DNA of 64,000 nt from a virus. Under the pieces are notes generated by a model. That model had not been told where the DNA came from, ran no database searches, and saw only the letters and a program-made list of their open reading frames with translations. The translations under genes were made by a program, and so were the position numbers. Position 1 is the first letter of the stretch. Each line of letters opens with the position of its first letter. Shown here piece by piece: positions 10,680 to 59,479 of this stretch. The stretch lies in the IMG/VR virus record IMGVR_UViG_3300048564_000035, positions 1-64,000 of that record; one strand, 5' to 3'.

Positions 10680-10685
10680 TTATAG

Positions 10686-10828: not shown

Positions 10829-10829
10829 A

Positions 10830-13645: not shown

Positions 13646-13683
13646 ATTTTTAAAAAACTATACACTTTCAATAAACAAAAAGT

Positions 13684-42071: not shown

Positions 42072-45000
42072 TTAAATAGTTTGCCCTAACGAGTTTTCAA
42101 ATCCAACTGAAACAAACTCCAATTCTAAAGGAGTTATGGAAACTGTAAATTCTAACATGATAAACATCGATGCACTTCTCATTTTCTCATTTATCAACAA
42201 CCCACTTACCGAATATCCTGTCGCTGTTGGTGTTATTTTATTCCTATAAAAAACAGCATACAAATTTCCTTCAAGTGGCCTATAATCAAAATCTACCAAA
42301 TCGCTGCATTGCTGAACCGGGGCATCGGTATAAAGATACGTCAAAGTAGGCTTCATATTAACCTTTAAAGCTATATTGTTATAGACTTTAGGTATTGCCG
42401 GGTTCTGATTTGATACAAACATGATCTTTGACTTATACTGAATGTCAAAGAAGTTATTATAAGAAGTCGTCTGATTGCCTATCCATATATGTCCGTCTTT
42501 GAACATAAATAATTTATTCTGCAATGTTATAAACCCTTCCGGATTGAAAGCATAGCTTCCCATCCACTTAGGCATACCATTCCCTTTGTCCAATTGATAT
42601 ACAATTGTCTTACCCTGAAAATCCAATATATCAAATGGGTATATAGTAAGATTTCTTACTCCCGTAATCGTTACATCATAACCTGAATCAACAAGACTTT
42701 CCTCAAATCTGGATGCCCCTTCCGGCATTGTATTATTTAAAACATCTTCTAATGTAGAACCGACAAACACTAAGTCTGATTGGTTTACAGATGATGGCGG
42801 AATAACTGATACAGGCGGAGATACACCATATGACTGTGTAGCTGGAATCAGGTAATATCCATTAGGTTGTGTTTCGGTAAGAAACACGAATATCCCGTAA
42901 TAATAAGATGCCGGGGCTTCATCAGAAGAAAAATAACCCTGTCTTATTTCATAAGCGTCTTTTACATAAACGTTTTCTGTATAATCGGGCAAATATCCTT
43001 TTGGCGGAATATTAAGTAATTTAGGTATAGAAATAAGAAGTTCCATATGATATGGATCAACCGTTGTAAATATAAATGGTCTTCCGCCTAATGCCTCAAT
43101 TTCTTCTGAAGTCATTGATAAAAATTGCTTGAACCACTCCTGCCAGAATCTAGTCATTTTATAATTAGAAATCGGGAACAATCCGTTTGAGGCGTATTGA
43201 ATCCATTTCCCATTATTGGCATCCGGGAAAATGACTATGCCCCTAAACTCTACCCATGCTTCAGGATTAACGGTTCCATAATTTCCTTTTAATACATTGA
43301 CTGTTCCTAGTACTTGCTCAGTAGTTACAAGGCTTGCATTGCCGGCTGAGCCCAATAATTGAGTTTCTCCCACATAAACAGATACCGTTTCCTGCTGGCA
43401 GCCAACAAGCATTACAACTCCTATTTCGTCCTGAACCTTTGATGTAAGTATCATCTTTAATATTGCCCCGCACTCGTTAGGGATTGGCTTTTCGTCTCCT
43501 GCATCAAATGTACTCAATCCGTTTATGGCTGTATTTGGTATATAATTGTTACTGAATGATATTGAATTTTTCTTTACTACCTGACCAAGCCTAGTTATGA
43601 GATTTATCTTCCCTGCATCGGTATCCCACCTCTGAAAATAAAGATCATTAGGAGACATCGCCTCTGCAAAATAGGTAGTACTTGCAAAAGTTCTGGTTAG
43701 TACGTAGGCATCAGGAGGGAATATATCGCTCAATATTTCATACGACCTTAGTTCTGTTCCCGGATTTGCTATACGGTATAATTGACCGATTTCATAGTAT
43801 GACTCCTGATCGCTTGTTCTGTAAGGGCTATATATCTCAAATGCGAAAGACCTAGTAGTTAAATCACCCGCATCAGCCGCCTTTACTATTATGTAATTAC
43901 CATTCTGACCGATAACGGGTAATTGATATATGGTATCATCATCTCTTATTAAAATACAAACATCACCTTCCTGAAATTGATAACCCAATCCTGATTGAAC
44001 CAATGCGTTTGTATTAAGTCCAATACCCAATACTCCGGTAACGAATGTAGTGCTTGTAAATATCCAATTACCATCAGTATCTTTTGTAGCGTATCTGGCA
44101 GCATTAGTAAACGAGTCAATAAAATATCTTGTTCTTAAATTTAGGGTACGGACTACTGCATAGTAATATGCCCAATCTGGTATCTCATTTAAAGCGTTAG
44201 TATTACTCAGCGTCCATACAGCTCCGCTAACTCCACTAGTAAAATAAAAATCTCTTGGTGGAATTTCGAATATACAGCCATCGTTTGTTACAACTCCACA
44301 TTTTCTCATCGCAAAATCATAAAAAACAACACCCCCCTGATATTGAGACTGCGTTTTAAATATGTCGTATGCTTGAATAGATACTCCTGTGATGGATACT
44401 AAACTTGAGGTAGTAATTGTAATAGGGCCGTCCCATCTGGTTGTCCCAACCGGAGCGGTGGCTTTGGCAACTTGCGATAAAGACGATCCCCTGAATGTTA
44501 ATCCCCCAAAAGCAAATGTTCCCGGAGCAGGTGGGAGTGTTGGATATGGAGACGACGAGGGGGATGTTGTCTGTGCTGTTGATGTCAATTCGTAGTAACC
44601 GTTAGGCACAACTTCCGTAAGATAAACATACCATGCGGAATAAGCATAATTAATATCTCCTGATCTGCCATTTCTGTGATATAGTTGAATAAGATTTTTT
44701 TGGAAGGAGGCTATTGCAAGATTAATTTCAGTAAGAGAAAAAGATAGTGATGTGGTTCCGGGAGTATCATATCCTTCCGTGTTATTGCCAAATCCTATTC
44801 TATTTCTAAAAGCGGCCATTGCTCTGGCATAAATTGGCACACTATCAAAAGGCTTTAACACAAGATTTGGAAGGCCGTTTGGTGAACCATCAAAGTTTAA
44901 TCCGTTCGGAATAAATTGACCTGTTATTGTATTGTAGTAGTTAAAAGTCAATACCTGAGTTCCGCTATTCTGGTCTGCTATTTCCTGAGCTTCGGTAGTT

Positions 45001-45848
45001 ACTTCTTTATCCCATTTTTTTGCTACGAAAGCATTGTTACTGTTTGAATATCTTACAATCAACTGTACTATTCTTACTGTATCTGGTATTGATTCCAGAC
45101 TATCCATAGTAACAGCAATATAGTTTTCTGTGGCATTAGCTTTATTAAGCCTTGATGCAGGGCTATAAACTCCTAATACGGTTGTTTCGTTATCATACCA
45201 TACATATCTGAAAGCAAACATGAATGAATCGTTCGCTATGAAATTATTCTCAAATGTTACATCGGTTGTCTTTTGAATATTTGGAGCGAGTGGCGGAGGG
45301 TGTTTTATTACGGTTATTTCAGAAAAATTAATAGGAAAAGTATAAGGAACGACATCAGTAACGTATGCCGATTGATTAGCTTTAATAGCGGCATCAATAT
45401 TTATTTTTCTTGGTGAGTTATTCGTTCCATCAGGCCAATATAACATTCCGTCAACGATAGCCGCACTATGAATGATTGAGTTTTTACTAAAGTTTAACCC
45501 ACCTGTTACCTGCGAAGAAAGCAAAACAACATATTCTGTTTGTGCGTCTTCATCCCAACAAACTATCCGGTGATTGTTTCCCGTCTTATCAAACTTAAAT
45601 TCTACAAATCTATTTCTTGCGACTTCATCAACGCTGCCAATTCCCAAAAAGGTAACTGATGGCTGTGGCGTAGATAATAATCGTGTGCTTCCAATACTTT
45701 CTACTGTACCCGTAACGCCTTTATCTGTACTACCAATACGAACATTTTCTGAATTTACCCATTCATTAATCCTTATAAATGCAGCGGCATCGTCAGAATT
45801 TAATCTTCCGTCTGGTGAAGCAAAATATTTTCTCTCCTTATCCTGCAT
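42072..45848 (-). CDS. large virion protein (1258 aa), tail/nozzle or baseplate-like, with an internal duplication of about 100 aa
   Basis: ORF track. Residues around 399-500 and around 978-1080 share Y.Y...(V/F).(Y/F)LTE..PNGYY followed by a Pro/Ser-rich segment and (I/V)TITG(V)...(I/L).(A/I)Y. Confidence 0.65.
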   Translation of the reverse strand: MQDKERKYFASPDGRLNSDDAAAFIRINEWVNSENVRIGSTDKGVTGTVESIGSTRLLSTPQPSVTFLGIGSVDEVARNRFVEFKFDKTGNNHRIVCWDEDAQTEYVVLLSSQVTGGLNFSKNSIIHSAAIVDGMLYWPDGTNNSPRKINIDAAIKANQSAYVTDVVPYTFPINFSEITVIKHPPPLAPNIQKTTDVTFENNFIANDSFMFAFRYVWYDNETTVLGVYSPASRLNKANATENYIAVTMDSLESIPDTVRIVQLIVRYSNSNNAFVAKKWDKEVTTEAQEIADQNSGTQVLTFNYYNTITGQFIPNGLNFDGSPNGLPNLVLKPFDSVPIYARAMAAFRNRIGFGNNTEGYDTPGTTSLSFSLTEINLAIASFQKNLIQLYHRNGRSGDINYAYSAWYVYLTEVVPNGYYELTSTAQTTSPSSSPYPTLPPAPGTFAFGGLTFRGSSLSQVAKATAPVGTTRWDGPITITTSSLVSITGVSIQAYDIFKTQSQYQGGVVFYDFAMRKCGVVTNDGCIFEIPPRDFYFTSGVSGAVWTLSNTNALNEIPDWAYYYAVVRTLNLRTRYFIDSFTNAARYATKDTDGNWIFTSTTFVTGVLGIGLNTNALVQSGLGYQFQEGDVCILIRDDDTIYQLPVIGQNGNYIIVKAADAGDLTTRSFAFEIYSPYRTSDQESYYEIGQLYRIANPGTELRSYEILSDIFPPDAYVLTRTFASTTYFAEAMSPNDLYFQRWDTDAGKINLITRLGQVVKKNSISFSNNYIPNTAINGLSTFDAGDEKPIPNECGAILKMILTSKVQDEIGVVMLVGCQQETVSVYVGETQLLGSAGNASLVTTEQVLGTVNVLKGNYGTVNPEAWVEFRGIVIFPDANNGKWIQYASNGLFPISNYKMTRFWQEWFKQFLSMTSEEIEALGGRPFIFTTVDPYHMELLISIPKLLNIPPKGYLPDYTENVYVKDAYEIRQGYFSSDEAPASYYYGIFVFLTETQPNGYYLIPATQSYGVSPPVSVIPPSSVNQSDLVFVGSTLEDVLNNTMPEGASRFEESLVDSGYDVTITGVRNLTIYPFDILDFQGKTIVYQLDKGNGMPKWMGSYAFNPEGFITLQNKLFMFKDGHIWIGNQTTSYNNFFDIQYKSKIMFVSNQNPAIPKVYNNIALKVNMKPTLTYLYTDAPVQQCSDLVDFDYRPLEGNLYAVFYRNKITPTATGYSVSGLLINEKMRSASMFIMLEFTVSITPLELEFVSVGFENSLGQTI

Positions 45849-45849
45849 A

Positions 45850-46125
45850 TTATGGCGGCGTTACTCCTTCGTTTATTGAAATTCGATCTTCTTTTATTAT
45901 CCAACATTGAAGAACAGATATTTTAAATGATGATATTGCTTCTTCAGGGTTAAACAAAACAAATTGACCAACTACTACATTGTCGGATAACTGACATACG
46001 GATACAACTTCTCCAAATAAAAAACCAGATGGAGTATCGGTAATGCCTAACCGACTGTCAGCTTGTTTAACAAGCACCTGACCATTTGATAAAATCAATT
46101 CTGTTGTTTCAAGTGGTGCTGCCAT
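45850..46125 (-). CDS. hypothetical protein (91 aa), weak GroES-fold-like pattern
   Basis: The pattern is QVLVKQ...GEVVSV...VVVGQFVLF...IIKEDRI. Confidence 0.5.
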   Translation of the reverse strand: MAAPLETTELILSNGQVLVKQADSRLGITDTPSGFLFGEVVSVCQLSDNVVVGQFVLFNPEEAISSFKISVLQCWIIKEDRISINEGVTPP

Positions 46126-46400
46126 TATTCAATAGAAAAGTAGTAATCAATAGCTGCACTTGTTATAATGAGTATTGAAAACCCTGATTTTAATTTTATT
46201 TCAACATCCGTTTTATACGCCTGATTAGCAGTTAATGCCTGCCTGTCAATATATACCTGATCGCCGTTTTCTACTATTGCCACCACTACCGTTGCTCCTG
46301 CACCGCTTTTATCAACTAATGTAAATGACTTAATTGTAGCAGCGATGTTATATGCTGTACTGGTTATAGAGCCGCTGGTATGTCCTTTTAAAACGGGCAT
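46125..46400 (-). CDS. hypothetical virion-module protein (91 aa)
   Basis: ORF track. Abutting start and stop codons. Confidence 0.5.
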   Translation of the reverse strand: MPVLKGHTSGSITSTAYNIAATIKSFTLVDKSGAGATVVVAIVENGDQVYIDRQALTANQAYKTDVEIKLKSGFSILIITSAAIDYYFSIE

Positions 46401-47161
46401 CAGGTCTTCATTGCTGCTGTATAGTTGCTACGGTAAATATTAATAATATCGGTTTGTGTCATATCATTCTTATTTGCCCTTAGCAATCTTTTTTCATTAT
46501 AATACGTCCTTCCTTCTCTTGAATCCTTATCATTTGCGCCTTCGCTTCTTTGCCATTCGCTATAAGTTTGTATTGCCCTGAAAGCATCCCAATCTACCTG
46601 AGTAGCGTTATCAATATGCTGTCCATTTGAAACATATAATAGGACTACATTCTCGCTGCTGAACGTTCCTGTAAATTGTATCTGCCTTCTGTTCTTTATT
46701 ATTTTATATCCGTTAGTATATGCGCCGCCATTTGCCCCGAAATATCTCCCCGTAGCTTCCCCGTACTCATTGACATTCCAATACCAGAAGAAACTTGTGT
46801 TAATACCAAAGAACATAAACTCTCCCGTATCTATATTCTGCTGATTTACGCTTGACTGAAAGGCTCCCGTTGTTGTATTGTGTAATCTTAATGGGCTAAT
46901 AGAATCTTTTTTTGCAATAGGCTGTAATAATTCCCCGACTGGAATCCCAACCATTACGTCATCCTTAAAATCTCCCGGTAAATCTGCCGCCCCATAGCTG
47001 TTTATTACAAGATTAGCAGCATTAACGATCTGTAAGGTGTCTTTTGCCAATTCTCTTATAGCTGATGACTCATGGTACATGATTTCTGTGTACCAGTGTA
47101 TGGGAAGTCCTTTCTCCAAAAGAGTCCGGCGAATAATCATGTCTAGGGTGCAAAAGGTCAT
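46400..47161 (-). CDS. hypothetical virion-module protein (253 aa)
   Basis: ORF track. Confidence 0.6.
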   Translation of the reverse strand: MTFCTLDMIIRRTLLEKGLPIHWYTEIMYHESSAIRELAKDTLQIVNAANLVINSYGAADLPGDFKDDVMVGIPVGELLQPIAKKDSISPLRLHNTTTGAFQSSVNQQNIDTGEFMFFGINTSFFWYWNVNEYGEATGRYFGANGGAYTNGYKIIKNRRQIQFTGTFSSENVVLLYVSNGQHIDNATQVDWDAFRAIQTYSEWQRSEGANDKDSREGRTYYNEKRLLRANKNDMTQTDIINIYRSNYTAAMKT

Positions 47162-47838
47162 TACGGTTGCTGTTGTTGGTTAGTTGGAATATTTTTTTGC
47201 TCCTTTACAGTTGCATCAACTAATTTATCAGGTATCGGCTGAGTCGAATACATCTTATACACTTCTGTTATAACGTCCCATTCCATTTCGGGGACAACCG
47301 GCAATGTATCATAGTCGCTATATTGGTTAATATCCATTATAGCCAACCTCAGGCTTAGTGTTTCCCCCGGATACAATAGTGGTAAATCTTTAGTGAAAGA
47401 AATATCCAATGCCCCCATTGCTTCATATCCAATTTGCCCTAACAAATCATTAATCATCGGTTGCGACCTAAGCAAATTGGACTGCCCCATTTGTAAAGGG
47501 ATAAATTCATCTTGCGGAGCATTGGTTCTGTAAATAGACCATATGCCCATATTGCGGGGAAGTTTTAAGGGCTTAATTGGAAGGGTACACTTACTTCGCC
47601 CAGTTACCCATGAAACAGGAGTTATGTTTTCGTATAATCCCAATACAGAACCATTAGGTATTTTTTCTCCCATTTGCTCATTAACCTGAAAATGCTCTAC
47701 TTTTAGCATCTTGTTTATCACCTGAGCGCAAGCAATTTTTAGTTCGTTGAAACTTATACTTGATGCGACTGCCGGACTTCCCCCTTCAATAAGATTGAAC
47801 GCCTGCTCTGCTAATCGGTATATAGTTACAACGGCCAT
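47161..47838 (-). CDS. hypothetical virion-module protein (225 aa)
   Basis: ORF track. Confidence 0.6.
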   Translation of the reverse strand: MAVVTIYRLAEQAFNLIEGGSPAVASSISFNELKIACAQVINKMLKVEHFQVNEQMGEKIPNGSVLGLYENITPVSWVTGRSKCTLPIKPLKLPRNMGIWSIYRTNAPQDEFIPLQMGQSNLLRSQPMINDLLGQIGYEAMGALDISFTKDLPLLYPGETLSLRLAIMDINQYSDYDTLPVVPEMEWDVITEVYKMYSTQPIPDKLVDATVKEQKNIPTNQQQQP

Positions 47839-48512
47839 TATACTCTGTTTATGTTTTGAAAGTTGGACTGAGTTTTCATTTCTGCATAATTTGAAATTTC
47901 CTGTGAAGTGAGATTAATTCCTATACTCGATAATGCCTTTAACAGGACTGCATTATACCATTCTTCTGTCCATTCTAAGTTTGTAGAATTGGCTTCATCA
48001 AAAACAATAACTCTTTCTGAGATGGTTGTATAGGCAAATACCGGCTTTACCGGCCTTCTTAAAAATCTTACTGTTCCATTATAAGCATTTGCAGGATATA
48101 GCCTGAAACTTCCGGGTGCTGTTTGTTCCCCAACCGGGCTTGTAATTGTTACCGGGTCAATTTGAGAATTAAGCCTGTCCGATAATTCATCCTCATTTGT
48201 CATGGGTACGGAATAATATCTTGTTACATCGCTGATGTTAAAGTAAATCCGAAGGTCTAAAAGGTTAAGATAATTTTGATTTGCAGGAACGATGACAAAT
48301 CCAGAAACCAGAGTGGTAAAGTTGTAAAAATCTCTGAATGGAGCCAGAGCATCTTTTATGTGTTGGGAAGTGGCGTATTTGGGCTGAATATCTGAATATA
48401 AAGACATTTGCCCACGATCCACAACAGCTTCTAATTCAGAAATTGTGTACCACGCACCCGTGCTTTTATTTATCCAAAAATTAAGGAAGTCAAAGCCTTC
48501 TTGAAGGGTCAC
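47838..48512 (-). CDS. hypothetical virion-module protein (224 aa), GTG start
   Basis: ORF track. The first codon is GTG. Confidence 0.55.
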   Translation of the reverse strand: MTLQEGFDFLNFWINKSTGAWYTISELEAVVDRGQMSLYSDIQPKYATSQHIKDALAPFRDFYNFTTLVSGFVIVPANQNYLNLLDLRIYFNISDVTRYYSVPMTNEDELSDRLNSQIDPVTITSPVGEQTAPGSFRLYPANAYNGTVRFLRRPVKPVFAYTTISERVIVFDEANSTNLEWTEEWYNAVLLKALSSIGINLTSQEISNYAEMKTQSNFQNINRV

Positions 48513-48588
48513 TATTTATCTGTTTGCTCAAAATTATTACAAAATAATCAATTAACAGACAAATTTTTATGCAATATATCCAGTCCCA

Positions 48589-49254
48589 TCAGTTCAGGAT
48601 GGCAAGTTCTTCGTAGGATGCTACCCGTTTCCCCAACACATGAGACTGTTTTATGATCCCGAATGGCTTATCATTAATCTGATAAATCCTCAAGATATTG
48701 GGGTTGAAATAAACAATATCCCCCCTTTCGCAGTCTATTCGTTTTTGGTGGATTAGAGGCTTGCCGACATGGGCAATCGTAGCGTAGGCTGTATTTATTT
48801 TCTTTTTTGTGGATTGCGGAAGGTATATTACTGGCGGCTTTTCTAGATTTTCAAGCATTACATACCCGTTCTGCATCCTTATTTTTTCATCCCGGACAAC
48901 TGCGTATAGACGGATAATGTCGCACAACCAATATTCGGCATCTTTATACCAAAATGAGTTTTTAAATATTGGGTCTTCCTCAGGGGCTGTACTTTTGAAT
49001 GAAAAAACGACTTCATGCGAGAATATGGCCGTATCTCCCGGGTTAATATCGGCTGCCGAATATCCCATGTAATCCCGCTTCCATGTGCTTATTTCAAGGG
49101 GAACAGAAACAACCTCTCCCGTTATGGCAACAAGATCGGCAGGCTCAATAGAGGTGTTATTTTGGATGGCAGCGATCCGCATTATCTTTGAAAAGTTGCC
49201 GATGTACTTATGCTTAATCTTTACTATTACTTGGTTCAGGGGGCTTTGAAACAT
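48589..49254 (-). CDS. hypothetical protein (221 aa), possibly two tandem GroES-like beta-barrel units
   Basis: The first unit is NQVIVKI...GEVVSVP...INPGDTAIF. The second is GYVMLEN...ATIAHVG...ERGDIVYF...IIKQSHVLG. Confidence 0.5.
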   Translation of the reverse strand: MFQSPLNQVIVKIKHKYIGNFSKIMRIAAIQNNTSIEPADLVAITGEVVSVPLEISTWKRDYMGYSAADINPGDTAIFSHEVVFSFKSTAPEEDPIFKNSFWYKDAEYWLCDIIRLYAVVRDEKIRMQNGYVMLENLEKPPVIYLPQSTKKKINTAYATIAHVGKPLIHQKRIDCERGDIVYFNPNILRIYQINDKPFGIIKQSHVLGKRVASYEELAILN

Positions 49255-49567
49255 TGCTTTCTATTTTAAATTTCTTGTACTTTTTTTTATCGGATACTAT
49301 TCGTTCGGCCCAAAACCATGCAGCCATATTGTCTGCAATCACGGCCATATCTTTATCTACATTGTTGTATGCGGGGATGAAGTTTCCTCGTAGTGTGCTT
49401 TGAATAACCACCCAAAGATAATATCCGGAAACGGGCGATTGGGCAATGGCTCCCGCAACCGGGTGACTTGAAATACACCCTACATAGTGAGGATGTTCTC
49501 TTTGAAGGACGTAGTATTGAAGTTCCCCATTTTTATCTTTGTCACGAAAAGTTATGAATGGACTCAT
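49214..49567 (-). CDS. hypothetical protein (117 aa)
   Basis: ORF track. Confidence 0.5.
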   Translation of the reverse strand: MSPFITFRDKDKNGELQYYVLQREHPHYVGCISSHPVAGAIAQSPVSGYYLWVVIQSTLRGNFIPAYNNVDKDMAVIADNMAAWFWAERIVSDKKKYKKFKIESNVSKPPEPSNSKD

Positions 49568-50118
49568 TGATAAATATCTTCTGGCATTAAAACTACATTG
49601 TAATTGACCTCCGCTCGGTTATTTGCTGAGAAACCGGGACGTTGTAAAGCGGCAAATGGATAACAAACAAACATCAAATCGCTTTTCTGTGCAGAATCAA
49701 TATGGTCTGTATCTTTCGTGGCTAAAAATGTATCGTAGTATCTTTCATGAATCATGTAAAGATGAAAACCTACAATACAGTCAACTTTCAATGCTCCCTG
49801 TTTTTCCGGCCTTTTAAAACTCATGTAAGAACCGGCTGCATAAATATCATAAACTTCCGGCTTATTTTCTAAAAACCATTTCCAGCCATTTTCACTTGGA
49901 AATTGAAGGTCGTCCTCCCCGATCAAACATTCTTTCAATCCTTTTTCTTTTGCATCTCTCACAATCATTTTATGTGAGGCGTTTATGGAACGAACGACTT
50001 CCGGGTACATTACGCAGGGCCAAATTTCATAGTCAGTAATGCGCTGCCTCTTTAATTCCGATATTAAGGGATCATATTTTTCTTGTCGCCGAGAATCAGA
50101 AATCAAATTCAATTTCAT
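49564..50118 (-). CDS. glycosyltransferase family 25-like protein
   Basis: ATG at 50118 overlaps the upstream stop in ATGA. MKLNLISDSRR and CLIGEDDLQF resemble the GT25 N-terminal strand and EDD motif. Confidence 0.45.
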   Translation of the reverse strand: MKLNLISDSRRQEKYDPLISELKRQRITDYEIWPCVMYPEVVRSINASHKMIVRDAKEKGLKECLIGEDDLQFPSENGWKWFLENKPEVYDIYAAGSYMSFKRPEKQGALKVDCIVGFHLYMIHERYYDTFLATKDTDHIDSAQKSDLMFVCYPFAALQRPGFSANNRAEVNYNVVLMPEDIYQ

Positions 50119-50690
50119 TTTGGTATCTGCCAGTACACAGTTTGCCACGGCCTTCCTTCATGATTGATGTGATTTGGCTGGACAAATTTATGTATTTCGT
50201 AGTTTCTCATAAGTTCTTCTGCGGGTGGTGAAATCCAAACATAATCTTGCTGCCAGTTGTCCGCTATCAATAATCCACCCCTTCCTTTAAAGTGATCTAA
50301 TGCCCATTGCAACATTTCATATCTCCAAATACCGTCCACGGAAATTATGTCATATTGCTTGTCGCTTGGTATTAAATAAAAATATTCTTGTTTTCTTTCT
50401 TGAATCCCATCAGGCAATTGACCGGCAAACACTCTCCCATTATGCAATCCATACCCGTTACAATCTTTTTTTACTTGTTCAGCCCATTCCAAATCAGCCT
50501 CTATACTATCAACCCATTTGCATCTTTCTCTTAGCCACGCCGTACCTCGTCCGGCTCCTGTTTCAAGCATTGTCTTATCTTTCCAATCCCATGTTTCAAT
50601 AAGTTCAAGTAACGGATGCGTCCACCAACACATTACCATTTCATTTTTTGGGCTGCGGATTTGCCACTCAACCAAATCAGATGTATTCAT
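50115..50690 (-). CDS. class I SAM-dependent methyltransferase
   Basis: Motif I is MLETGAGRGT, the acidic beta-2 end is VDSIEAD, and the post-I motif is YDIISVDG. Confidence 0.6.
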   Translation of the reverse strand: MNTSDLVEWQIRSPKNEMVMCWWTHPLLELIETWDWKDKTMLETGAGRGTAWLRERCKWVDSIEADLEWAEQVKKDCNGYGLHNGRVFAGQLPDGIQERKQEYFYLIPSDKQYDIISVDGIWRYEMLQWALDHFKGRGGLLIADNWQQDYVWISPPAEELMRNYEIHKFVQPNHINHEGRPWQTVYWQIPK

Positions 50691-51493
50691 AGTAACTTTA
50701 TGTATTGTTCCCTATATGAAATAAGCCAATCAAAGTTTTCATCCGGATAGTGATATTTCAATACGGTCATTATTATTTCAAAGTTCTTTTCTTCGTAGCC
50801 GGGACGAGGTAAATGAAAATCAATTGTATCTGGCGATAATCTGTCAAGTAAATATGCGTCATCACGATCATATCTTTTACTCGAAAATTGCGTTCCGGGT
50901 CTGGCTCTGGGTATTAGGATGGGCATTGTTTGTTTAATAATATTATATGCCTCTTCCTGATCTTTCCCCCAATAATTTCCCCTGAAATGTTCTGCTTCAA
51001 TATGACTTAACAAGGTATCAAGCTTATGTTGATAAGTAGTATTGCATCCAAATGCAGATTTCCACGTTGCTTGTCTTGCCCATATATAACACATTGGGTA
51101 TTGATTTTCGGGAGTTAAGTCATAACCAAATACATAAAAGTATGGGTACTCTTTTGGTATCTCATTAGCAGGATTAACAAACAAACACATATCCACATCA
51201 GAGGTAATAAGTATTTCATCTTCTGGTAAATCTAATGCTGAAGCATAAAGACGAGAACATTGGGAGTATGTAGCTTCTTTGTGTTCAGGACAATTAAATT
51301 TATGAATTGAAATGCCAGCGTTTATTATTTTTAATGTATTGTCAATAAGTGCTGATTTGGCTGACAACAAGGGCTGATTTTCAATTGGTATAAAGCAAAT
51401 CACATCTACATTCAATTTATTCCAGCACCATACAACTATGGGTAAACTGAATAAATAAAGATCATCATACGTGGTAGAGATAACTGATTTCAT
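50687..51493 (-). CDS. putative GT-A-type glycosyltransferase (268 aa)
   Basis: A DxD-like motif, ITSDVDM. It lies inside the glycosyltransferase operon. Confidence 0.35.
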   Translation of the reverse strand: MKSVISTTYDDLYLFSLPIVVWCWNKLNVDVICFIPIENQPLLSAKSALIDNTLKIINAGISIHKFNCPEHKEATYSQCSRLYASALDLPEDEILITSDVDMCLFVNPANEIPKEYPYFYVFGYDLTPENQYPMCYIWARQATWKSAFGCNTTYQHKLDTLLSHIEAEHFRGNYWGKDQEEAYNIIKQTMPILIPRARPGTQFSSKRYDRDDAYLLDRLSPDTIDFHLPRPGYEEKNFEIIMTVLKYHYPDENFDWLISYREQYIKLL

Positions 51494-51494
51494 A

Positions 51495-52175
51495 CTACAT
51501 TCCCTCTATAAAAAATATTAACTCTTGTGGATTGTAATTAGTTCCTTTATATGCTACTGCATCATACATGAGTGTCGGCTTAATATTAAGCAGGTGCGCT
51601 GCTAGTGACAAACAACTTTGATCCTGTCTATGATGAAGGAATCGTGGATCACTGCTTTGTCCATCATGATTTCTGCTTCCTTTGCTTAGCCCTGCTTCCA
51701 TTAACTCTTTCCATTTTTCATAAAGATGTTTCCCGTCTGGATTGTCAAAATTTAATGCTACACATCCGGAAGCATACTCATGTATGTTTTCGGCTTCATC
51801 CCGGCTAATTCCTGTTGCCTCTAATGCAACATCATTTACTGACTGAGCCAAATTGTACCCACTTCTGAAAAGATAAACTCCCTTTTCGGCGATAAGGTCA
51901 AATATAGGAGTTGGATTTTTTACGCTCCAAAAACTTGCGTCACACCACATAATTTGAGTAAACCCATGTCTCAATGCTTCATCAAATGCAGCTATCTTGA
52001 AATAATAAGGAATGTCATTGTGGTTATGGGAATTTGGCGGATACTCATCTTTCCATGTAAGTATTGACCCGCCCCACCCTTCAAATATTAAACTTCTTTC
52101 AAGCCTGCGAACCCCATTTGCATACCATCCATTTATGCCACAAGAAATAATTACTGATTTTTCTAAATTTGCCAT
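51495..52175 (-). CDS. putative nucleotide-sugar-dependent glycosyltransferase (226 aa)
   Basis: MWCDAS and HHRQDQS motifs, which I recall from GT-A-like sugar transferases. Operon context supports the call. Confidence 0.35.
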   Translation of the reverse strand: MANLEKSVIISCGINGWYANGVRRLERSLIFEGWGGSILTWKDEYPPNSHNHNDIPYYFKIAAFDEALRHGFTQIMWCDASFWSVKNPTPIFDLIAEKGVYLFRSGYNLAQSVNDVALEATGISRDEAENIHEYASGCVALNFDNPDGKHLYEKWKELMEAGLSKGSRNHDGQSSDPRFLHHRQDQSCLSLAAHLLNIKPTLMYDAVAYKGTNYNPQELIFFIEGM

Positions 52176-52181
52176 TTGTTG

Positions 52182-52784
52182 TTATTTATTAAGCCCGTAA
52201 CGCTCGGTTGGATTTGAGGAAATGTGTTTGTAGAAATACATAAATTCATCAATGTGGTATTCGTTTTTAAGCAACGGGTGAAGTGCGTTAGCCCATTGTT
52301 CGTCCTCGTTCCATCTTATAGCGGGCACTTCTACTGATTTTGCTATTTCTGTCCTGATAACATCCTTGAAGTAGGGTGTTCTTGCGTATTTAAAACCTTC
52401 CGGCCATGTGGGATTATCGTGCCATCCAGAATATTTTATACTATGATTTGATTTAGATATATCTCCATCAATATCTACGTGTTCATAGTATGTTATGCAA
52501 TCGGGGTTTTCTTCAATGCCCTTTAATACTTTTTCAAAAAAATCAGGCGCTACTCCGTCATCATCGTCTGGCATAAATGAATAAAGTCCAATTGACTCCT
52601 GATATAGTAAGTTTCTTTTTTCCCCTACTGTCATTGATTTATCATCTTTCTTAATCTGAAATTGAACTATGTTTGGGAAAGGCAATGCAACTCGCTGCCT
52701 ATATAATTCGGCCAAAAGAAGTTCAAGATTATGCTCTCTCCCAACAACTGTTGGGATTAATACGCTCAATAAAATATTACTCAT
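52182..52784 (-). CDS. glycosyltransferase family 2
   Basis: The N-terminal strand LSVLIPTVVGREHNL and the acidic motif MPDDDDG. Confidence 0.65.
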   Translation of the reverse strand: MSNILLSVLIPTVVGREHNLELLLAELYRQRVALPFPNIVQFQIKKDDKSMTVGEKRNLLYQESIGLYSFMPDDDDGVAPDFFEKVLKGIEENPDCITYYEHVDIDGDISKSNHSIKYSGWHDNPTWPEGFKYARTPYFKDVIRTEIAKSVEVPAIRWNEDEQWANALHPLLKNEYHIDEFMYFYKHISSNPTERYGLNK

Positions 52785-52786
52785 GT

Positions 52787-52963
52787 CTATATTTTTTCTC
52801 CGTTACAAAATGTTGCTTCTAAAATTTCACCGTCATCCAAATCAGAACTATCTCTCACAAACCAAACGCTTAGGCATTTAATTACGTATCGGTATGCATT
52901 ATGCTTTCTGGAACTATTTTCGGCATATTTATATGCTCCGCCTAATGTCTCAAACTTTTTCAT
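52787..52963 (-). CDS. 58-aa hypothetical protein filling the gap in the glycosyltransferase operon
   Basis: Below the ORF-track cut-off. The ATG at 52963 overlaps the upstream stop in ATGA. The stop TAG lies 2 nt before the GT2 ATG. Confidence 0.45.
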   Translation of the reverse strand: MKKFETLGGAYKYAENSSRKHNAYRYVIKCLSVWFVRDSSDLDDGEILEATFCNGEKI

Positions 52964-53640
52964 GGTAAATCAAAGTTTATTGCTTGTCTTGCGTGGAAGT
53001 TAGCTTCATCTTCCGGCCAATGTCCTTGTTGAATGTTAAACATTTCGTCTCTGACTAAATGACCATAAGCCGGGTTTAGGTGTACATTTATTTGATAACC
53101 GCAATATTTGTACTTACCCATTTTTTGGGATGCTATCATTTCTTCATTATCACACCAAAGGCTTTTATATGATGGGTGGTATATGTTTTTCCCCCTTAAT
53201 TCCCACCACTTTCTTCCCGCAATATACATCGTGGCTAAGGCTTCTTTCGCATCCTGATCCGGATAGTGTAAAAGGCCGTCAAAGTTCGGAAAATGACTAA
53301 TCATATCGTTGCCCACGTTTACGTCAAATCCATATAGTGTAAAAATCATGTCGTCACTATGGCAAAAAAGTATATCCCAATCTATGTCAGGCATTGATCT
53401 ATTAATCGCATGAATTTTTGATTCAGACAACCCCCACCCAATTGAAATATTTGAGTACTTATTTATCCGATCAATTACTTCTGGATTGTTCATTGTAGGA
53501 TCATCGTTGTCCAGCGTACAGGATATGTGATAGTGATCTCTATCTGAAATGTTATCAACTAGGCTATCAAGGCTTTTAAAAAACCTTTCGGGCCTTCCCC
53601 TTGATGGGAATTTGAAAAGTTTAAACGGCGGGTTGTTCAT
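52960..53640 (-). CDS. putative glycosyltransferase (226 aa)
   Basis: FKFPSRGRPERF is an N-terminal strand-loop motif and CHSDDM is an acidic motif. It is the first gene of the cluster. Confidence 0.4.
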   Translation of the reverse strand: MNNPPFKLFKFPSRGRPERFFKSLDSLVDNISDRDHYHISCTLDNDDPTMNNPEVIDRINKYSNISIGWGLSESKIHAINRSMPDIDWDILFCHSDDMIFTLYGFDVNVGNDMISHFPNFDGLLHYPDQDAKEALATMYIAGRKWWELRGKNIYHPSYKSLWCDNEEMIASQKMGKYKYCGYQINVHLNPAYGHLVRDEMFNIQQGHWPEDEANFHARQAINFDLP

Positions 53641-53645
53641 ATATT

Positions 53646-53924
53646 TTAATCTTCTTTAACGATTGCCCAAATCTCACCAAGTTCTTCCCTGAGCCATAAA
53701 TGCCATTTGCCATTATAAAGCTGCCCTAATCCTGCATTAGATGGATAAGAGATAATGTCTCCCCTTTTGTACTTTTTTTCTAACTCAGGGGAAACCTCTA
53801 TGACTTCTGCATCAGATAAATTTGCCACCGCTACACTAGCAGGTATCACTATGCTTTCAACTTGTTCTTCCTTTGCTTCAATTGGGAGTACTAATATTTT
53901 TCTTCCTTCTGGAATTATTCTCAT
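53646..53924 (-). CDS. GroES/Cpn10-like co-chaperonin
   Basis: It aligns by eye with GroES. IIPEGRKILVLPIE matches IRPLHDRVIVKRKE. YKRGDIISY matches VKVGDIVIF. GEIWAIVKE matches SDILAIVE. Confidence 0.6.
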   Translation of the reverse strand: MRIIPEGRKILVLPIEAKEEQVESIVIPASVAVANLSDAEVIEVSPELEKKYKRGDIISYPSNAGLGQLYNGKWHLWLREELGEIWAIVKED

Positions 53925-54376
53925 TTTTTTGTGTAAATATTTGTGATTGTAATAATTGTAGCGTTTGGAGGCTGCGTTTCGGTTATCGTTTTTAATTGGG
54001 TCGAAGATATGGAAACAATCTTTTCCGTAATCGTTCCGGCGTTAGGAATTGTCCAGTTTAATGTGTTTCCATAATCAGAAAGACTCCACGTAATACTGCT
54101 TTCAATAGAACAAGTTTTGTTTACATTCCCTGTCATTGAGGGGTAATTGAAGTATACTTTATACCCGCTTGGGCATGAGAACATAACTGCTAAAACATCT
54201 GTTTCGGTACTTCCATTCCCGTCCCAATCATAAGGAACGCTACTTGTTTTGGATGACAACACCCACGTTCCATTTAGCAGGTATGAGTTTGTAATTGTAT
54301 TGTCTTTGGGCTGATTATCATGTCCTTTTGAACATGAACCAAAAATAATAGCGATTAATATAATTAATATTTTCAT
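53921..54376 (-). CDS. lipoprotein with a lipocalin-like body (151 aa)
   Basis: ATG at 54376. MKILIILIAIIFGSC provides a lipobox Cys. LNGTWVLSS is a lipocalin-like start. Confidence 0.6.
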   Translation of the reverse strand: MKILIILIAIIFGSCSKGHDNQPKDNTITNSYLLNGTWVLSSKTSSVPYDWDGNGSTETDVLAVMFSCPSGYKVYFNYPSMTGNVNKTCSIESSITWSLSDYGNTLNWTIPNAGTITEKIVSISSTQLKTITETQPPNATIITITNIYTKK

Positions 54377-54380
54377 GTCA

Positions 54381-54653
54381 TTATTTTTTATTCCCATTTA
54401 TGAGGCTTAATTCTTCGGATGCCTTTTTGCTTTTATTTTCCAGAATAGTTTCAATGGCTGCTTTTATTGATAACTGTTCTTGGGTTGTAAAAGATTCAAT
54501 AGCTGTTAGGGCTTCCTGCGGGGTTATTTCTTTGTTCTTGGCCATGATTGTTTGTTTATTTAATAATTGTAATATTTGCGGGTTAGATGTATATTTTGGT
54601 CTATGATTAGCCTTATTCAATGTCATAAAAATTGGCAGTTTTACATCTCCCAT
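54381..54653 (-). CDS. hypothetical protein (90 aa; alternative start at 54545)
   Basis: ORF track. Confidence 0.45.
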   Translation of the reverse strand: MGDVKLPIFMTLNKANHRPKYTSNPQILQLLNKQTIMAKNKEITPQEALTAIESFTTQEQLSIKAAIETILENKSKKASEELSLINGNKK

Positions 54654-54690
54654 AAAGAAACCCCCTTTCCCTTCCGTTGCCTTTTTATGT

Positions 54691-55572
54691 TTAGTTACTT
54701 GCTGGATTTTTTACTACGTCGTCGGTAGCTTCGTCACCCCATGCGGTTACTAATAAATAACCATTAATGCCGTCTTTTGATACGGACTGCAAAACAATTG
54801 GGTCATAAACTAAACGATAACCATCACGAATTTCATAGCCTCTTGTATTAAAATCTTCTTTTGGAGCGCAGATTTTGAAAGCAGGTTGTTCGTATTCTTT
54901 CTTTGGCTCAGGCTTATCCTCTTTCCTATATGGATCAACCCCTATAACTCCTTGTCTGGATTGGGATATGCCTAATTGCATAGCCATTTCATCTTTTGCC
55001 ATCATGTAATTAGCAAGAAGATCATCGTATAAACGAGTGCGACCCGATTGCCGTGGCTTTGTAAGGTAAGTTCCATATTCGTCTGCTGCCTGAGATGATG
55101 GCCTAAATAAGTTTATAAGCCCTGCTTGCGGCGATGGAGAGTCGGCCCAACTAAACCAAGGTGATGAACTTTTTTCTTTCCAATCTTCTTTTCTCAATTT
55201 GAATTGTTCAATGTCCTGCAAATTCTTTTCGGGCATATCTCCAATATAGCTTGAAGCATCTCCCAAAAGAAGGCCGTACTTTTCACAAAGTATTTTTACT
55301 TCCGCTTCTGTGATAAACTTATTTTGAGGATAGTAAGTCCTGAAATATTCAATGCAATGAATCATGTGACCCGAAACTGACCTTTTCTTTTCAAGTTCAA
55401 TGTCATCCTTGATTGGCTTTGCGTTTCCAAACCCTATTTTTTTAAGGCGGTCAGCTTTGCTTGAATTTTTAACTAATGTTCCTTTTGATAGTCCGATAGC
55501 CTCTACATACAATCTTTCTTCGGCTCCATAAAAGTCTGCGTGAATTTCTTTTGCAGTAATAGTTTTTTCCAT
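54691..55572 (-). CDS. hypothetical protein (293 aa)
   Basis: ORF track. Confidence 0.6.
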   Translation of the reverse strand: MEKTITAKEIHADFYGAEERLYVEAIGLSKGTLVKNSSKADRLKKIGFGNAKPIKDDIELEKKRSVSGHMIHCIEYFRTYYPQNKFITEAEVKILCEKYGLLLGDASSYIGDMPEKNLQDIEQFKLRKEDWKEKSSSPWFSWADSPSPQAGLINLFRPSSQAADEYGTYLTKPRQSGRTRLYDDLLANYMMAKDEMAMQLGISQSRQGVIGVDPYRKEDKPEPKKEYEQPAFKICAPKEDFNTRGYEIRDGYRLVYDPIVLQSVSKDGINGYLLVTAWGDEATDDVVKNPASN

Positions 55573-55584
55573 ATAATTAATTTT

Positions 55585-55755
55585 TTATTTAGTTTCTTTT
55601 GGAAGAAATTTTTCTTCAAGGGTTACATTAATTGCGTTGTTTTCTGATGGGAACTTTTTTTTACCCACCTGCTTTTTAATTTCAACAAGTACGTCCGGAT
55701 TGACTTTTATGTATTTACCTTCCAATACCTTTTTCTTGGTTCTTTTTGAAATCAT
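55585..55755 (-). CDS. small basic protein (56 aa), first gene of the minus-strand block
   Basis: The only ATG is at 55755; the track start at 55782 is TTG. The promoter-like motif ends 4 nt upstream. Confidence 0.45.
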   Translation of the reverse strand: MISKRTKKKVLEGKYIKVNPDVLVEIKKQVGKKKFPSENNAINVTLEEKFLPKETK

Positions 55756-55759
55756 GCCG

Positions 55760-55790
55760 CTAAAGTATGTCAGTATCACCAAATCTCAAA
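55760..55790 (-). promoter_or_regulatory. candidate promoter of the minus-strand block
   Basis: On the minus strand: TTTG (55790-55787), a 19-nt spacer, then TActTTAG (55767-55760). This implies a leaderless or near-leaderless mRNA. Confidence 0.35.
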
Positions 55791-55806
55791 ATAATTCAAG
55801 AAAATA

Positions 55807-55837
55807 TTTGCCGGTATCACCGAAACGCCTATATTTG
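55807..55837 (+). promoter_or_regulatory. consensus Bacteroidota promoter of the second + strand block
   Basis: TTTG at 55807-55810, a 19-nt spacer, then TAtaTTTG at 55830-55837. Confidence 0.6.
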
Positions 55838-55863
55838 TCATAGACAACAAAAAAAATAGAGGA

Positions 55864-56001
55864 ATGAAAAAATATTACAAAAGAAAGGCGTTTTGGGAAG
55901 CATTCGTAATTGTTGCCGCTGCAAAACTATTAAGTCACCCAAGGTGGACATACGCATGGTGGAACTCACGATTAACGCTAATCAAAAAAGGAGAAATATG
56001 A
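55864..56001 (+). CDS. 45-aa membrane peptide
   Basis: The ATG lies 27 nt after the -7 box. The stop overlaps the next ATG in ATGA. Confidence 0.35.
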   Translation: MKKYYKRKAFWEAFVIVAAAKLLSHPRWTYAWWNSRLTLIKKGEI

Positions 56002-56243
56002 AAAAGCTAAAGCATCCTCAGCAAGTTGCTGAAATGGTAGAAAAACATAACAAGGAAATTCGTGACACTGTTTTTGATGAGGCGATAGAAGTCTTTGGCA
56101 AAGACACGTTGTTTATTCATGACTGCATTAAGCAAGTAATGAGAGAGCATTTTCTTGATTATCAAGACGCAAATTTACAAGCAGCATTTGTAAGGGTAGC
56201 GATAGGGGTAAATAAAATGAACTACCCTAAAAAGGTAAAATGA
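55998..56243 (+). CDS. hypothetical protein (81 aa)
   Basis: The ORF track gives 55893-56243 with a TTG start. The first ATG is at 55998. Confidence 0.5.
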   Translation: MKKLKHPQQVAEMVEKHNKEIRDTVFDEAIEVFGKDTLFIHDCIKQVMREHFLDYQDANLQAAFVRVAIGVNKMNYPKKVK

Positions 56244-56473
56244 AAGCCGAAAAAATCAATATTGAAGACTTGAATGAGGGTGATGTTGTTTTCCTTGATA
56301 AAGTATATGGTTACTGCACTGTTTTAAAAACCCACATAGGCGTAAACTTGGGAACAATCGTGGTTTTTGAGGCTACTGGAATTGGGTGGAAGGGAGATGA
56401 AAATCCAGTTAATAAAGTAGTATCAAAATATTACACAAGACGGAGTAAGAGAAAGCTTGAGTTATATGAGTGA
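56240..56473 (+). CDS. hypothetical protein (77 aa)
   Basis: ORF track. Confidence 0.5.
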   Translation: MKAEKINIEDLNEGDVVFLDKVYGYCTVLKTHIGVNLGTIVVFEATGIGWKGDENPVNKVVSKYYTRRSKRKLELYE

Positions 56474-56569
56474 AAAAACAAAAACCGTGAGAGAAATAAT
56501 TTTAAATAGTTACCTTTTCTAATTTTTTTTACAAATGGGAGAGAGGGAGATTTAAAAAAAGTAAAAATT

Positions 56570-58846: not shown

Positions 58847-59479
58847 ATGGCTATGGACGAACGCGAATACAACATATTATTTAATAAATACCATAAGCGT
58901 CTGGTATATTTTTCCCGTAAACTTATCGGTGAAATGTATTGTGAAGATGTGGTTGCTGATGTATTTGCTAAAGTATGGAAAGAGGGAATAAAAAACGGTG
59001 TTTTAGATGTGGGGGCATACCTATATAAACTTGTACAAAATAAATGCAATGACGTATTAAGGGGGGCGACAAGAATAAGGAGACAACGCATGATTAAGCG
59101 TGATTCAAATTATCCCTACCAAAACGTATCATCAATGCCCCCGGATATTAAACAACACTTATCTAATGGAGCAATTTCAGAAGAGTATGCCGACAGTAAG
59201 GTAATACACACTGAGCTATTAGCGTCCATCATAGACATAGTCGAATCAATGCCGGCAGAACGGAAGAAAATGTTCTACATGATATTCATTGAAGATTTAA
59301 GCACTAGTGAAATAATAGCCGAAACAGGACTATCAGAAAGCACTATCCGTGTACAAAAAATGAAGATTGTTAAAGACCTTACTATGTATGGAACAAAACT
59401 TATCAACCGTCCCTGTTGGGTTAACGATGGTAATAAAACTTTACTTAGTGCAAGATTTTCTAAAAATAAAACCAAATGA
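58847..59479 (+). CDS. ECF-type sigma-70 family RNA polymerase sigma factor
   Basis: The region 2-like segment is YHKRLVYFSRKLIGEMYCEDVVADVFAKVW. The region 4-like segment is MPAERKKMFYMIFIEDLSTSEIIAETGLSESTIRVQKMKIVKDL. Confidence 0.75.
   Translation: MAMDEREYNILFNKYHKRLVYFSRKLIGEMYCEDVVADVFAKVWKEGIKNGVLDVGAYLYKLVQNKCNDVLRGATRIRRQRMIKRDSNYPYQNVSSMPPDIKQHLSNGAISEEYADSKVIHTELLASIIDIVESMPAERKKMFYMIFIEDLSTSEIIAETGLSESTIRVQKMKIVKDLTMYGTKLINRPCWVNDGNKTLLSARFSKNKTK

Follow-up and report, generated by a model that had tools for sequence, protein, structure and literature searches.

Glycosyltransferase-like enzymes and a predicted methyltransferase in a virus-borne gene block beside the virion genes of an environmental phage

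What might a phage that seems to encode its own multi-step sugar pathway be decorating? The question is raised by IMG/VR virus record IMGVR_UViG_3300048564_000035, of which we analysed positions 1 to 64,000 (64,000 nucleotides, hereafter the window). In this window, seven co-oriented open reading frames (ORFs) of the minus strand, designated A to G, occupy positions 49564-53640, with intergenic distances of -4 to +6 nt. An earlier note on this DNA had described them as a six-enzyme glycosylation operon and had proposed a methylated glycan on virion proteins as its product. Five glycosyltransferases, of which A is only probable, and one methyltransferase are supported by our analysis. With moderate confidence, we propose that the cluster is a soluble, cytoplasmic pathway that would build a methylated oligosaccharide on virion proteins. 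This proposal is based on the homology between C and gp108 of mycobacteriophage Che8, on the presence of the same enzyme families in the Che8 cassette, on the adjacency of head genes, and on the virus-restricted D family, which is shared with giant viruses. These observations also favour the product suggested in the earlier note, in which the acceptor is the part that we infer.

Scans against Pfam, PHROG and NCBIfam annotated only C; they returned nothing for A, D, E and G, and a weak match to motif I for F. C matches phrog_8858 (1e-25) and phrog_14775 (1.2e-24), both annotated as glycosyltransferase, and scores by itself 19.4 bits in Pfam, under the cut-off of 23.3 bits. In tblastn searches, C retrieves only records of Gordonia, Mycobacterium and Actinoplanes phages, almost all annotated as glycosyltransferases, and it shares 27.6% identity with Che8 gp108 (3e-12). 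The C family aligns by hhalign with residues 6-188 of gp108 at 99.9% (E 7.6e-36), and its profile matches, in the PDB, GalT1 (5hea, 1.1e-8), the glycosyl transferase 5tze/5tz8 (1.6e-7) and a beta-1,3-GlcNAc transferase (6h1j, 4e-4). The residues R16, K56, R57, D73, D75, E160 and D161 are invariant, and the aspartate motif previously highlighted in C corresponds to D73, D75 and D76. C also exhibits the features of CAZy family GT2, namely a DxD motif, a downstream ED catalytic motif and matches to GT2 profiles. Judged by its sequence, C is an inverting GT2 glycosyltransferase homologous to the N-terminal domain of gp108.

The assignment of A is the least certain of the set. Its family reaches, by hhalign, 94% with a GT2/GT7C-like family and 84.5% with a GT25-like family, and its profile aligns weakly, through the SDD motif, with the GT2 enzymes DPMS (E 0.1) and TarP (E 0.36) in the PDB. 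R14, R16, D44, D47, S95, D96, D97, D164 and H187 are invariant or nearly so; A thus keeps the aspartate and histidine residues expected of a metal-dependent GT-A enzyme, which supports its assignment to this fold. A is therefore a probable metal-dependent, inverting-type GT-A glycosyltransferase of an unnamed virus-borne family. In P0001 and P0002, A is fused to a C-like GT2 domain, and such Rosetta-stone fusions argue for A and C acting together. Among the related loci fetched from IMG/VR (numbered with the prefix L), L003 (947-2983), L005 (247-2238) and L011-L015 encode single proteins of 660-680 aa in which an unknown GT-A-like N-terminal domain is combined with A-like and C-like domains. 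Homologues of the short ORF B occupy its place between A and C in L097 (phmmer, 2.3e-9) and in L006 and L007 (profile, 8.6e-6), and most of the loci that carry the core genes lack it. B is a genuine small gene conserved in a few relatives.

D and E were assigned from structural models. D has no match in Pfam. Its AlphaFold2 (AF2) model, with a predicted local distance difference test (pLDDT) score of 94, resembles LARGE1, BoGT6a, the blood-group enzymes GTA/GTB, UGGT and glycogenin in Foldseek searches of the PDB (E ~1e-5, template modelling (TM) score 0.5-0.6). In BFVD, the D model matches a protein of an uncultured Caudovirales (7e-18, TM 0.82), as well as proteins of EhV-86, Tetraselmis virus and Klosneuvirus, a Hyperionvirus protein annotated as class I methyltransferase, and cyanophage glycosyltransferases. 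R183, D185 and Q186 fall on conserved columns of the family, and a single invariant aspartate (D79) is found where a DxD motif is expected, which recalls the metal-independent BoGT6a. A match of the D profile to WD40 proteins was rejected as a repeat artefact. None of the 41 members of the E family matches Pfam. The E model (pLDDT 96) resembles the catalytic domain of UGGT, Skp1 alpha-galactosyltransferase, glycogenin, LgtC, GlyE and LARGE1 (E ~2e-6, TM ~0.5), and D99 and D101 of its DxD motif are invariant, as is H227. We are confident that the models of both proteins show a retaining-type GT-A fold, GT6/GT8/GT24-like for D, which represents an unnamed virus-restricted family, and GT8/GT24-like for E. 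At TM scores of 0.5-0.6, this modelled likeness is one of fold and not of CAZy family membership.

The profile of the F family matches, in the PDB, the methyltransferase-like protein 3cvo (1e-6), 3ntv (3e-3), CbiT (5e-3) and family-3 O-methyltransferases (0.09-0.11), in agreement with a weak Erm/CbiT match in NCBIfam. G45 and G47 of motif I and D119 of motif IV are invariant, and a glutamate or an aspartate is present in every aligned sequence where the end of strand beta-2 is expected. F also aligns at 96.7% (hhalign) with a second methyltransferase-like family of the related loci. These motifs and matches identify F as a class I S-adenosylmethionine (SAM)-dependent methyltransferase, probably an O-methyltransferase acting on a sugar. 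In the case of G, the protein of the window itself has no Pfam match at E up to 1, and 19 of the 61 members of its family match Glyco_transf_25 (best 4.4e-8). The G family aligns with the Mimivirus R655 glycosyltransferase (0.0037) and also with the collagen galactosyltransferase COLGALT1, and E68 and D70 of its E68-D69-D70 motif are invariant. G can thus be assigned, at the family level, as a GT25-like glycosyltransferase. Matches of shallow profiles or single sequences to an antibody Fab, Kremen and an anti-sigma antagonist in the PDB were discarded as chance. The six enzymes have an isoelectric point (pI) of 5.1-5.6, a net charge of -4 to -11 and no transmembrane segment, and the maximum 19-residue Kyte-Doolittle hydropathy of the proteins A to H is 1.51 or less. 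Acidic and devoid of hydrophobic segments, the six enzymes are predicted to be soluble and cytoplasmic.

Regarding the enzymes, the earlier reading was therefore largely borne out: a GT2 enzyme (C), a GT25-like enzyme with an EDD motif (G), three further GT-A-like proteins (A, D and E, the first only as probable) and a SAM methyltransferase (F). Each of the motifs quoted then falls on an invariant or nearly invariant column of its family.

We then considered how widely these genes are distributed, using searches of IMG/VR that found relatives of A at 129 sites of viral contigs and relatives of D at 46, followed by local tblastn and by clustering of all 2,728 ORFs from the fetched loci. About 15 related viral contigs keep the whole block in synteny and represent the lineage of the window. 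The gene order in this lineage is GroES-like, A, (B), C, D, E, F, G, H, g221, g224, g225, g253 and a large virion protein, and it is now and then broken by homing-endonuclease-like inserts and extra methyltransferases. In L006, genes of the HNH/NUMOD4 homing-endonuclease type are located inside the glycosyltransferase block (9656-10888) and just after it (13451-13960); as the gene order is kept, the block tolerates mobile inserts.

Beyond this lineage, at least four or five unrelated phage backbones carry the A-C-D triad, which totals 112 viral loci after deduplication. The triad usually comes with an O-methyltransferase of FkbM type and frequently with further methyltransferases and glycosyltransferases; the cluster of FkbM-type methyltransferases (representative, Pfam 1.3e-15) is present in 74 loci. 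Three gene orders illustrate this diversity. One comprises primase-helicase, A, C, FkbM, D, two methyltransferases, the large terminase (TerL), portal, MuF, protease and major capsid protein (MCP). Another comprises portal, head protease-like, small ORFs, A, C, D, FkbM, two more glycosyltransferases and a putative MCP, and the third a fused X-A-C protein, D, FkbM and baseplate genes. The 15 or so syntenic contigs and the 112 A-C-D loci show clustering beyond chance, and the enzyme set is held together by selection in many viruses. A, C and D form an ancient virus-borne core, to which E, F and G are lineage-specific additions.

Homologues were abundant in metagenomes. Profile searches retrieved 616 homologues of D and 459 of F, nearly all of them unnamed; a few of those of F are named SAM-dependent methyltransferase by the Joint Genome Institute (JGI), and many D-like and F-like homologues sit on contigs of 60-80 kb. 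An exhaustive profile-free search with E and G returned 645 representatives. A word-indexed protein query with concatenated A, D, E and G returned four proteins, none of them from the E or G family; the concatenation had probably cost sensitivity. Among GenBank phage records, tblastn with concatenated A-G matched C only and detected no homologue of A, D, E, F or G, and a nucleotide search with 49000-54500 gave no match to GenBank phages. A scan of IMG/VR with C alone also gave none. In a pattern-based scan of cellular genomes (one genome per species, 185,579 species), the D family was found at three loci, all in metagenome-assembled genomes, one of them being a 77-kb contig with full phage synteny. 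A D-like domain fused to a domain of ~340 aa is encoded on a 52.7-kb contig together with the major capsid gene of a nucleocytoplasmic large DNA virus (NCLDV) and GT34/GT47-like genes, and a second D-like fusion lies on a contig with a DVNP gene. These fusions on giant-virus-like contigs are those of L002 (10001-11683) and L004 (2413-4056), where the C-terminal ~340 aa, without Pfam match, contain by eye an 'HLRATD' motif.

The block of the window is flanked on both sides by conserved genes (Table 1). All seven ORFs lie where the earlier note had placed them, and the three ATGA overlaps that it listed, A/B (52960/52963), E/F (50687/50690) and F/G (50115/50118), are real. Two more such overlaps exist, one at G/H (49564/49567) and one between the lipoprotein-like and GroES-like genes (53921/53924). 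The remaining gaps between 54653 and 48589 measure -41 to +6 nt, and the first sizeable gap (76 nt) is downstream of g221. No terminator-like site was found within the cluster on the coding strand, and matches to promoter and terminator consensus sequences across 45500-56500 did not exceed those in shuffled sequences.

Table 1. The block A-G and its immediate neighbours in the window
Gene	Position	Strand	Product and matches
Lipoprotein-like gene	53921-54397	-	hydrophobic N-terminus ending in Cys
GroES-like co-chaperonin	53646-53924	-	Pfam Cpn10 4.7e-6; PHROG co-chaperonin GroES 3e-5
A	52960-53640	-	226 aa
B	52787-52963	-	58 aa
C	52182-52784	-	200 aa
D	51495-52175	-	226 aa
E	50687-51493	-	268 aa
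F	50115-50690	-	191 aa
G	49564-50118	-	184 aa counted from ATG
H	49214-49567	-	117 aa, basic, conserved
g221	48589-49254	-	weak Cpn10-like C-terminal domain; Pfam Cpn10 E 0.0017, under curated cut-off

The position of the block between a GroES-like/lipoprotein pair and the virion genes, described previously, was confirmed on both flanks. The GroES-like gene lies upstream of A in 15 fetched loci; g221 is syntenic in 16-18 loci and virion structural genes then follow downstream, the genes 47838-48512 and 46400-47161 of the window matching PHROG families of virion structural proteins. Two genes with a GroES fold, the GroES-like gene and g221, therefore flank the glycosyltransferase block, and both are kept across the lineage. 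The lipoprotein-like gene shows a weak lipocalin-like domain (Pfam, 0.019) and could be a candidate for superinfection exclusion. H is kept in 13-15 relatives and matches nothing in Pfam or the PDB. L103 and L136 led us to reject it as a member of the glycosylation module: there, the glycosyltransferase block and the structural block have opposite orientations, and H keeps its place beside g221 and the virion genes. H is thus more likely an assembly or virion gene and probably belongs to the structural block rather than to the glycosylation block. The claim that the block lies inside the late, virion-encoding strand holds only in part: it is co-oriented with the structural genes here, and divergent from them in L010, L103 and L136. 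DnaB precedes the block in L006 and L091, together with a DNA N6/N4 methylase in the case of L006. These DnaB-adjacent and divergent relatives place the module at the boundary between replication and morphogenesis, not strictly inside the late operon.

How could such a set of enzymes act? The enzymes would use nucleotide sugars of the host, as the cluster has no recognised gene for the synthesis of such sugars. Sugars would be added stepwise to yield a short, partly methylated heterosaccharide, for which the co-occurrence of inverting (C and probably A) and retaining (D and E) enzymes predicts both beta and alpha linkages, and F would methylate a sugar hydroxyl. The initiating enzyme would most likely be G, GT25-like as is Che8 gp110, or C. 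The acceptor would most likely be at least one virion protein, glycosylated in the cytoplasm ahead of assembly or while it proceeds, and the outcome a glycan-coated particle of the kind known from the mycobacteriophages Che8 and Corndog and from giant algal viruses. In favour of a virion acceptor, the block adjoins or is co-transcribed with morphogenesis genes in the window, and on unrelated backbones it either immediately precedes TerL-portal-MCP or separates the portal gene from a putative capsid gene. Of the 34 loci with at least 6 kb of flank on each side, 30 carry a labelled head or virion gene no more than 6 kb away.

Mucin-like linkers rich in threonine and proline, such as TTPPTTTTPPPVDPPPTTTP and TPPGTTQPVTQPPAQTTPTP, are present in the late-strand proteins encoded at 16547-17296, 32407-33201 and 42072-45848 (minus strand). 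Speculatively, these linkers are plausible O-glycosylation sites; nothing ties them to the cluster. Of the two Pro/Thr/Ser-rich proteins put forward in the earlier note, that of 16547-17296 indeed carries a Thr/Pro tract, TTPPTTTTPPPVDPPPTTTP, and that of 25621-26832 is instead rich in proline, glutamate and alanine and by eye scaffold-like. Collagen-like Gly-X-Y repeats, considered as a GT25 target, are absent from all six frames.

Several points weigh against a virion glycan. The major capsid protein has no Ser/Thr-rich C-terminal extension, which had been considered as a glycan target. The 30/34 figure was computed without a null model, and structural genes occupy a large part of any phage genome. 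The relatives in which the block follows DnaB or a DNA methylase, or diverges from the structural genes, would also fit a middle-gene or DNA-related role. The resemblance to the Che8 enzymes is also uneven: no homology was detected between F and the C-terminal domain of gp108, with which a related family (c8) reaches 38%, and the G profile aligns with gp110 over the H...EDD region only (E 0.033, probability 1.5%). GT2, GT8 and GT25 are, in addition, classic families of lipopolysaccharide and lipooligosaccharide (LPS/LOS) core synthesis. Finally, GT-A enzymes with an R...DDD...ED motif glycosylate 5-hydroxymethylcytosine (5hmC) in DNA (bioRxiv 10.1101/2023.12.21.572611).

These last two points lead to the alternatives. 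The cluster might remodel a host envelope glycan, such as an LPS/LOS core, an O-antigen or a capsule precursor, at the cytoplasmic face of the membrane, and the remodelled glycan would block superinfection or change the surface of the infected cell. We regard this as unlikely, yet worth serious consideration: GT2, GT8-like and GT25-like enzymes are responsible for LPS/LOS outer cores, the fold matches of E include LgtC, Pfam describes GT25 as an LPS biosynthesis protein family, the FkbM-type methyltransferases of related loci weakly resemble Pfam V_cholerae_RfbT, the lipoprotein-like gene is just upstream of the block, and glycosyltransferase clusters of cyanophages are usually read in this way (PMC12801897). 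However, Pfam, PHROG, NCBIfam and hydropathy scans of the cluster revealed no transmembrane protein, flippase, polymerase, polyprenol-phosphate transferase or Gtr-type gene, in line with the absence of Wzx/Wzy and GtrA/B-type genes remarked on previously. Furthermore, cellular genomes almost lack the D family, which sets it apart from genes taken over from host glycan loci, and head genes adjoin the block on many backbones. The window proteins scanned include no recognised integrase or repressor, which makes a lasting seroconversion unlikely.

A cluster that hypermodifies the phage DNA, placing a methylated oligosaccharide on a hydroxylated pyrimidine and thereby shielding the genome from host nucleases, appears improbable. 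It has a precedent in phages, where mono- to trisaccharides are assembled on 5hmC by TarP-like GT-A enzymes and by second-step enzymes of GT8-like type, encoded in clusters that can adjoin helicases, methylases, terminases and structural genes (bioRxiv 10.1101/2023.12.21.572611). C has the R...DDD...ED motif and matches PDB 6h1j, named TarP in that work, and relatives have DnaB, a primase-helicase or an N6/N4 DNA methylase ahead of the block. The precursor enzymes, however, were not found: PHROG and Pfam scans gave no match to the ThyA family, TET/JBP, 2-oxoglutarate (2OG) oxygenases or C5-methylases among window proteins of at least 196 aa outside the structural block, in line with the lack of a thymidylate-synthase homologue remarked on in the earlier note. 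These scans cover the 64-kb window, with ~7.6 kb of genome outside it, and the IMG/VR loci were analysed without a 5mYOX-seeded search. With T4 gp42 as query, the six-frame ORFs from the window and from ~137 related loci likewise yielded no match at E up to 10. Moreover, the enzymes are acidic, whereas T4 beta-glucosyltransferase has a pI of 9.05, and five glycosyltransferases plus sugar O-methylation exceed what the mono- to trisaccharide DNA glycans of bioRxiv 10.1101/2023.12.21.572611 would require. A decidedly improbable alternative is that the enzymes act on another target, be it a non-structural phage protein, host proteins during takeover, a small molecule or a storage glycan. Glycogenin, UGGT and the Skp1 glycosyltransferase, which are among the nearest folds, do act on soluble cytoplasmic or luminal proteins, and a role as acceptor or adaptor is conceivable for B and H, both small and conserved, but the sequence data yield no specific candidate and the steady linkage to head and virion modules across backbones would be left unexplained. 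As had been suggested, the cluster resembles neither a classical O-antigen conversion cassette nor a known DNA-hypermodification cluster, and modification of virion proteins remains the reading that we favour.

One observation is relevant both to protein hydroxylation-glycosylation and to DNA modification. In L105, a glucosyltransferase encoded beside A-C-D (4159-4827) matches the N-terminal part of a PHROG 2OG-Fe(II) oxygenase family of 689 positions (2.6e-9), and related phage proteins may be glycosyltransferase-oxygenase fusions.

A virus-encoded glycosylation cassette is in itself a known kind of system. What is new here is the probable host phylum, the number of enzymes, the three core families lacking a Pfam model, the steady pairing with O-methyltransferases and the breadth of distribution, which includes giant-virus contigs. 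In the portions of the cited literature that bear on this, covalent glycosylation of phage virions is demonstrated experimentally for the mycobacteriophages Che8, Corndog and Myrna only. The homology between C and gp108 ties the mycobacteriophage cassettes to a far larger, unannotated module located beside the head genes of environmental phages. Tentatively, and with less confidence than for the cluster of the window, we suggest that A-C-D and the O-methyltransferases constitute an unrecognised virus-restricted glycan-coat system, which would be widespread among uncultured tailed phages from soil and water, on several unrelated backbones and in hundreds of metagenomic clusters, and which giant viruses would share. 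Glycosylated virions would, on this view, be commonplace among phages and not an actinophage curiosity, and the system would have a core of three families (A, D and E) that Pfam lacks. If the acceptor is the virion, methylated glycans may be common on the surfaces of soil and water phages, with a bearing on adsorption, particle stability, grazing, immune recognition and the design of phage therapy. If it is DNA or the host envelope, the cluster would represent a new route to such a modification without known precursor enzymes. Whichever the acceptor, A, D and E gain a testable enzymatic role.

The window is clearly of phage origin, as it encodes a portal (27548-29938), a large terminase (29950-32064) and a major head protein (24215-25567), along with virion structural proteins at 42072-45848, 46400-47161 and 47838-48512. 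Its terminase is similar only to those of phages of Flavobacteriia (Maribacter, Cellulophaga and Flavobacterium) and of one uncultured Caudoviricetes record, at 24-27% identity, and a 77-kb relative was binned with a metagenome-assembled genome of Puia (Chitinophagaceae). From this likeness and this binning, the host is likely a member of the Bacteroidota. Protein D of the window is on record from a 71.6-kb contig, which is why ~7.6 kb of the genome is placed outside the window; contigs with identical proteins, sought past the ends of the window, were short or did not extend it.

Other genes of the window attracted our attention. The early region contains an IS1595-family transposase (9478-10452, plus strand; Pfam DDE_Tnp_IS1595 1.7e-32, zinc-ribbon domain 1.2e-10); insertion sequences are uncommon in lytic-looking phage genomes. 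A pentapeptide-repeat protein, also among the early genes (2496-3101, plus strand; Pfam Pentapeptide 5.5e-29), could be a DNA mimic or an anti-defence protein. The rightward early block encodes a sigma-factor-like protein (58847-59479, plus strand; PHROG RNA polymerase sigma factor 1.4e-13), of which an identical gene in L134 matches Sigma70_r4_2, and a protein with a weak GIY-YIG domain (60604-60939, plus strand). On the late strand, a protein of 2,120 aa (33198-39560, minus strand) has no PHROG match, and neither have proteins of 983 and 510 aa; all three are large uncharacterised virion or ejection proteins.

Compared with known systems, the Gtr (GtrA/GtrB/GtrC) and O-antigen cassettes of temperate phages likewise consist of phage-encoded glycosyltransferase genes. 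Their flippase, bactoprenol glucosyltransferase and periplasmic transferase have no counterpart here, where neither transmembrane segments nor lysogeny genes were recognised. The clusters for sugar hypermodification of phage DNA (Pyle et al., bioRxiv 10.1101/2023.12.21.572611) likewise combine TarP-like GT2 enzymes of the GT-A fold with GT8-like second-step enzymes, are multi-step and can be located near helicase, terminase and structural genes. They rely on ThyS or on a C5-methyltransferase/5mYOX pair, none of which was detected in the window, and no ThyA-family homologue was detected in the related loci. In contrast to these clusters, O-methyltransferases are a consistent part of the present module and the enzymes are acidic.

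Giant viruses glycosylate their own particles with their own enzymes; the glycans of the chlorovirus major capsid protein carry methylated sugars, and Mimivirus has fibril glycans. The machinery of giant viruses and the present cluster have in common virus-encoded cytoplasmic GT-A enzymes and methyltransferases. A D-like domain occurs beside an NCLDV capsid gene, D-like folds are found in EhV-86, Hyperionvirus, Tetraselmis virus and Klosneuvirus, often in multidomain proteins, and Mimivirus R655 is the best PDB match of the G family. Here, in contrast, single-domain enzymes are encoded in an operon of a tailed phage, and homology to a functionally characterised giant-virus enzyme was not shown.

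The closest parallel is the virion-glycosylation cassette gp108-gp110 of Che8 (Freeman et al. 2023, cited in PMC12363180, PMC11256854 and PMC12619734). In the passages of these papers that refer to it, gp110 is reported to be essential for capsid glycosylation (PMC12363180) and the glycans are located on the C-termini of the capsid and tail-tube proteins (PMC12619734, citing Freeman 2023). In our Pfam scan of Che8, gp108 comprises a GT2 domain and a Methyltransf_24/TylF O-methyltransferase domain, gp109 is GT2-like and gp110 belongs to GT25 (1.2e-7). The two systems differ in several respects. The host of Che8 is an actinobacterium, whereas the host here is probably a Gram-negative member of the Bacteroidota. 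Che8 has three glycosyltransferases against five here, where the A family and two retaining GT6/GT8-like enzymes are additional. The methyltransferase, fused to GT2 in gp108, is here the separate protein F of a different subfamily. The Che8 cassette is located at the right end of the genome and not, as here, beside morphogenesis genes. Unlike in Che8, the capsid protein here has no C-terminal extension, and the virion acceptor is a prediction. Nevertheless, both systems combine a GT2 enzyme (gp108 and C, which are homologous), a methyltransferase and an enzyme of GT25 type (gp110 and the GT25-like G), and both are compact, co-oriented sets of soluble enzymes.

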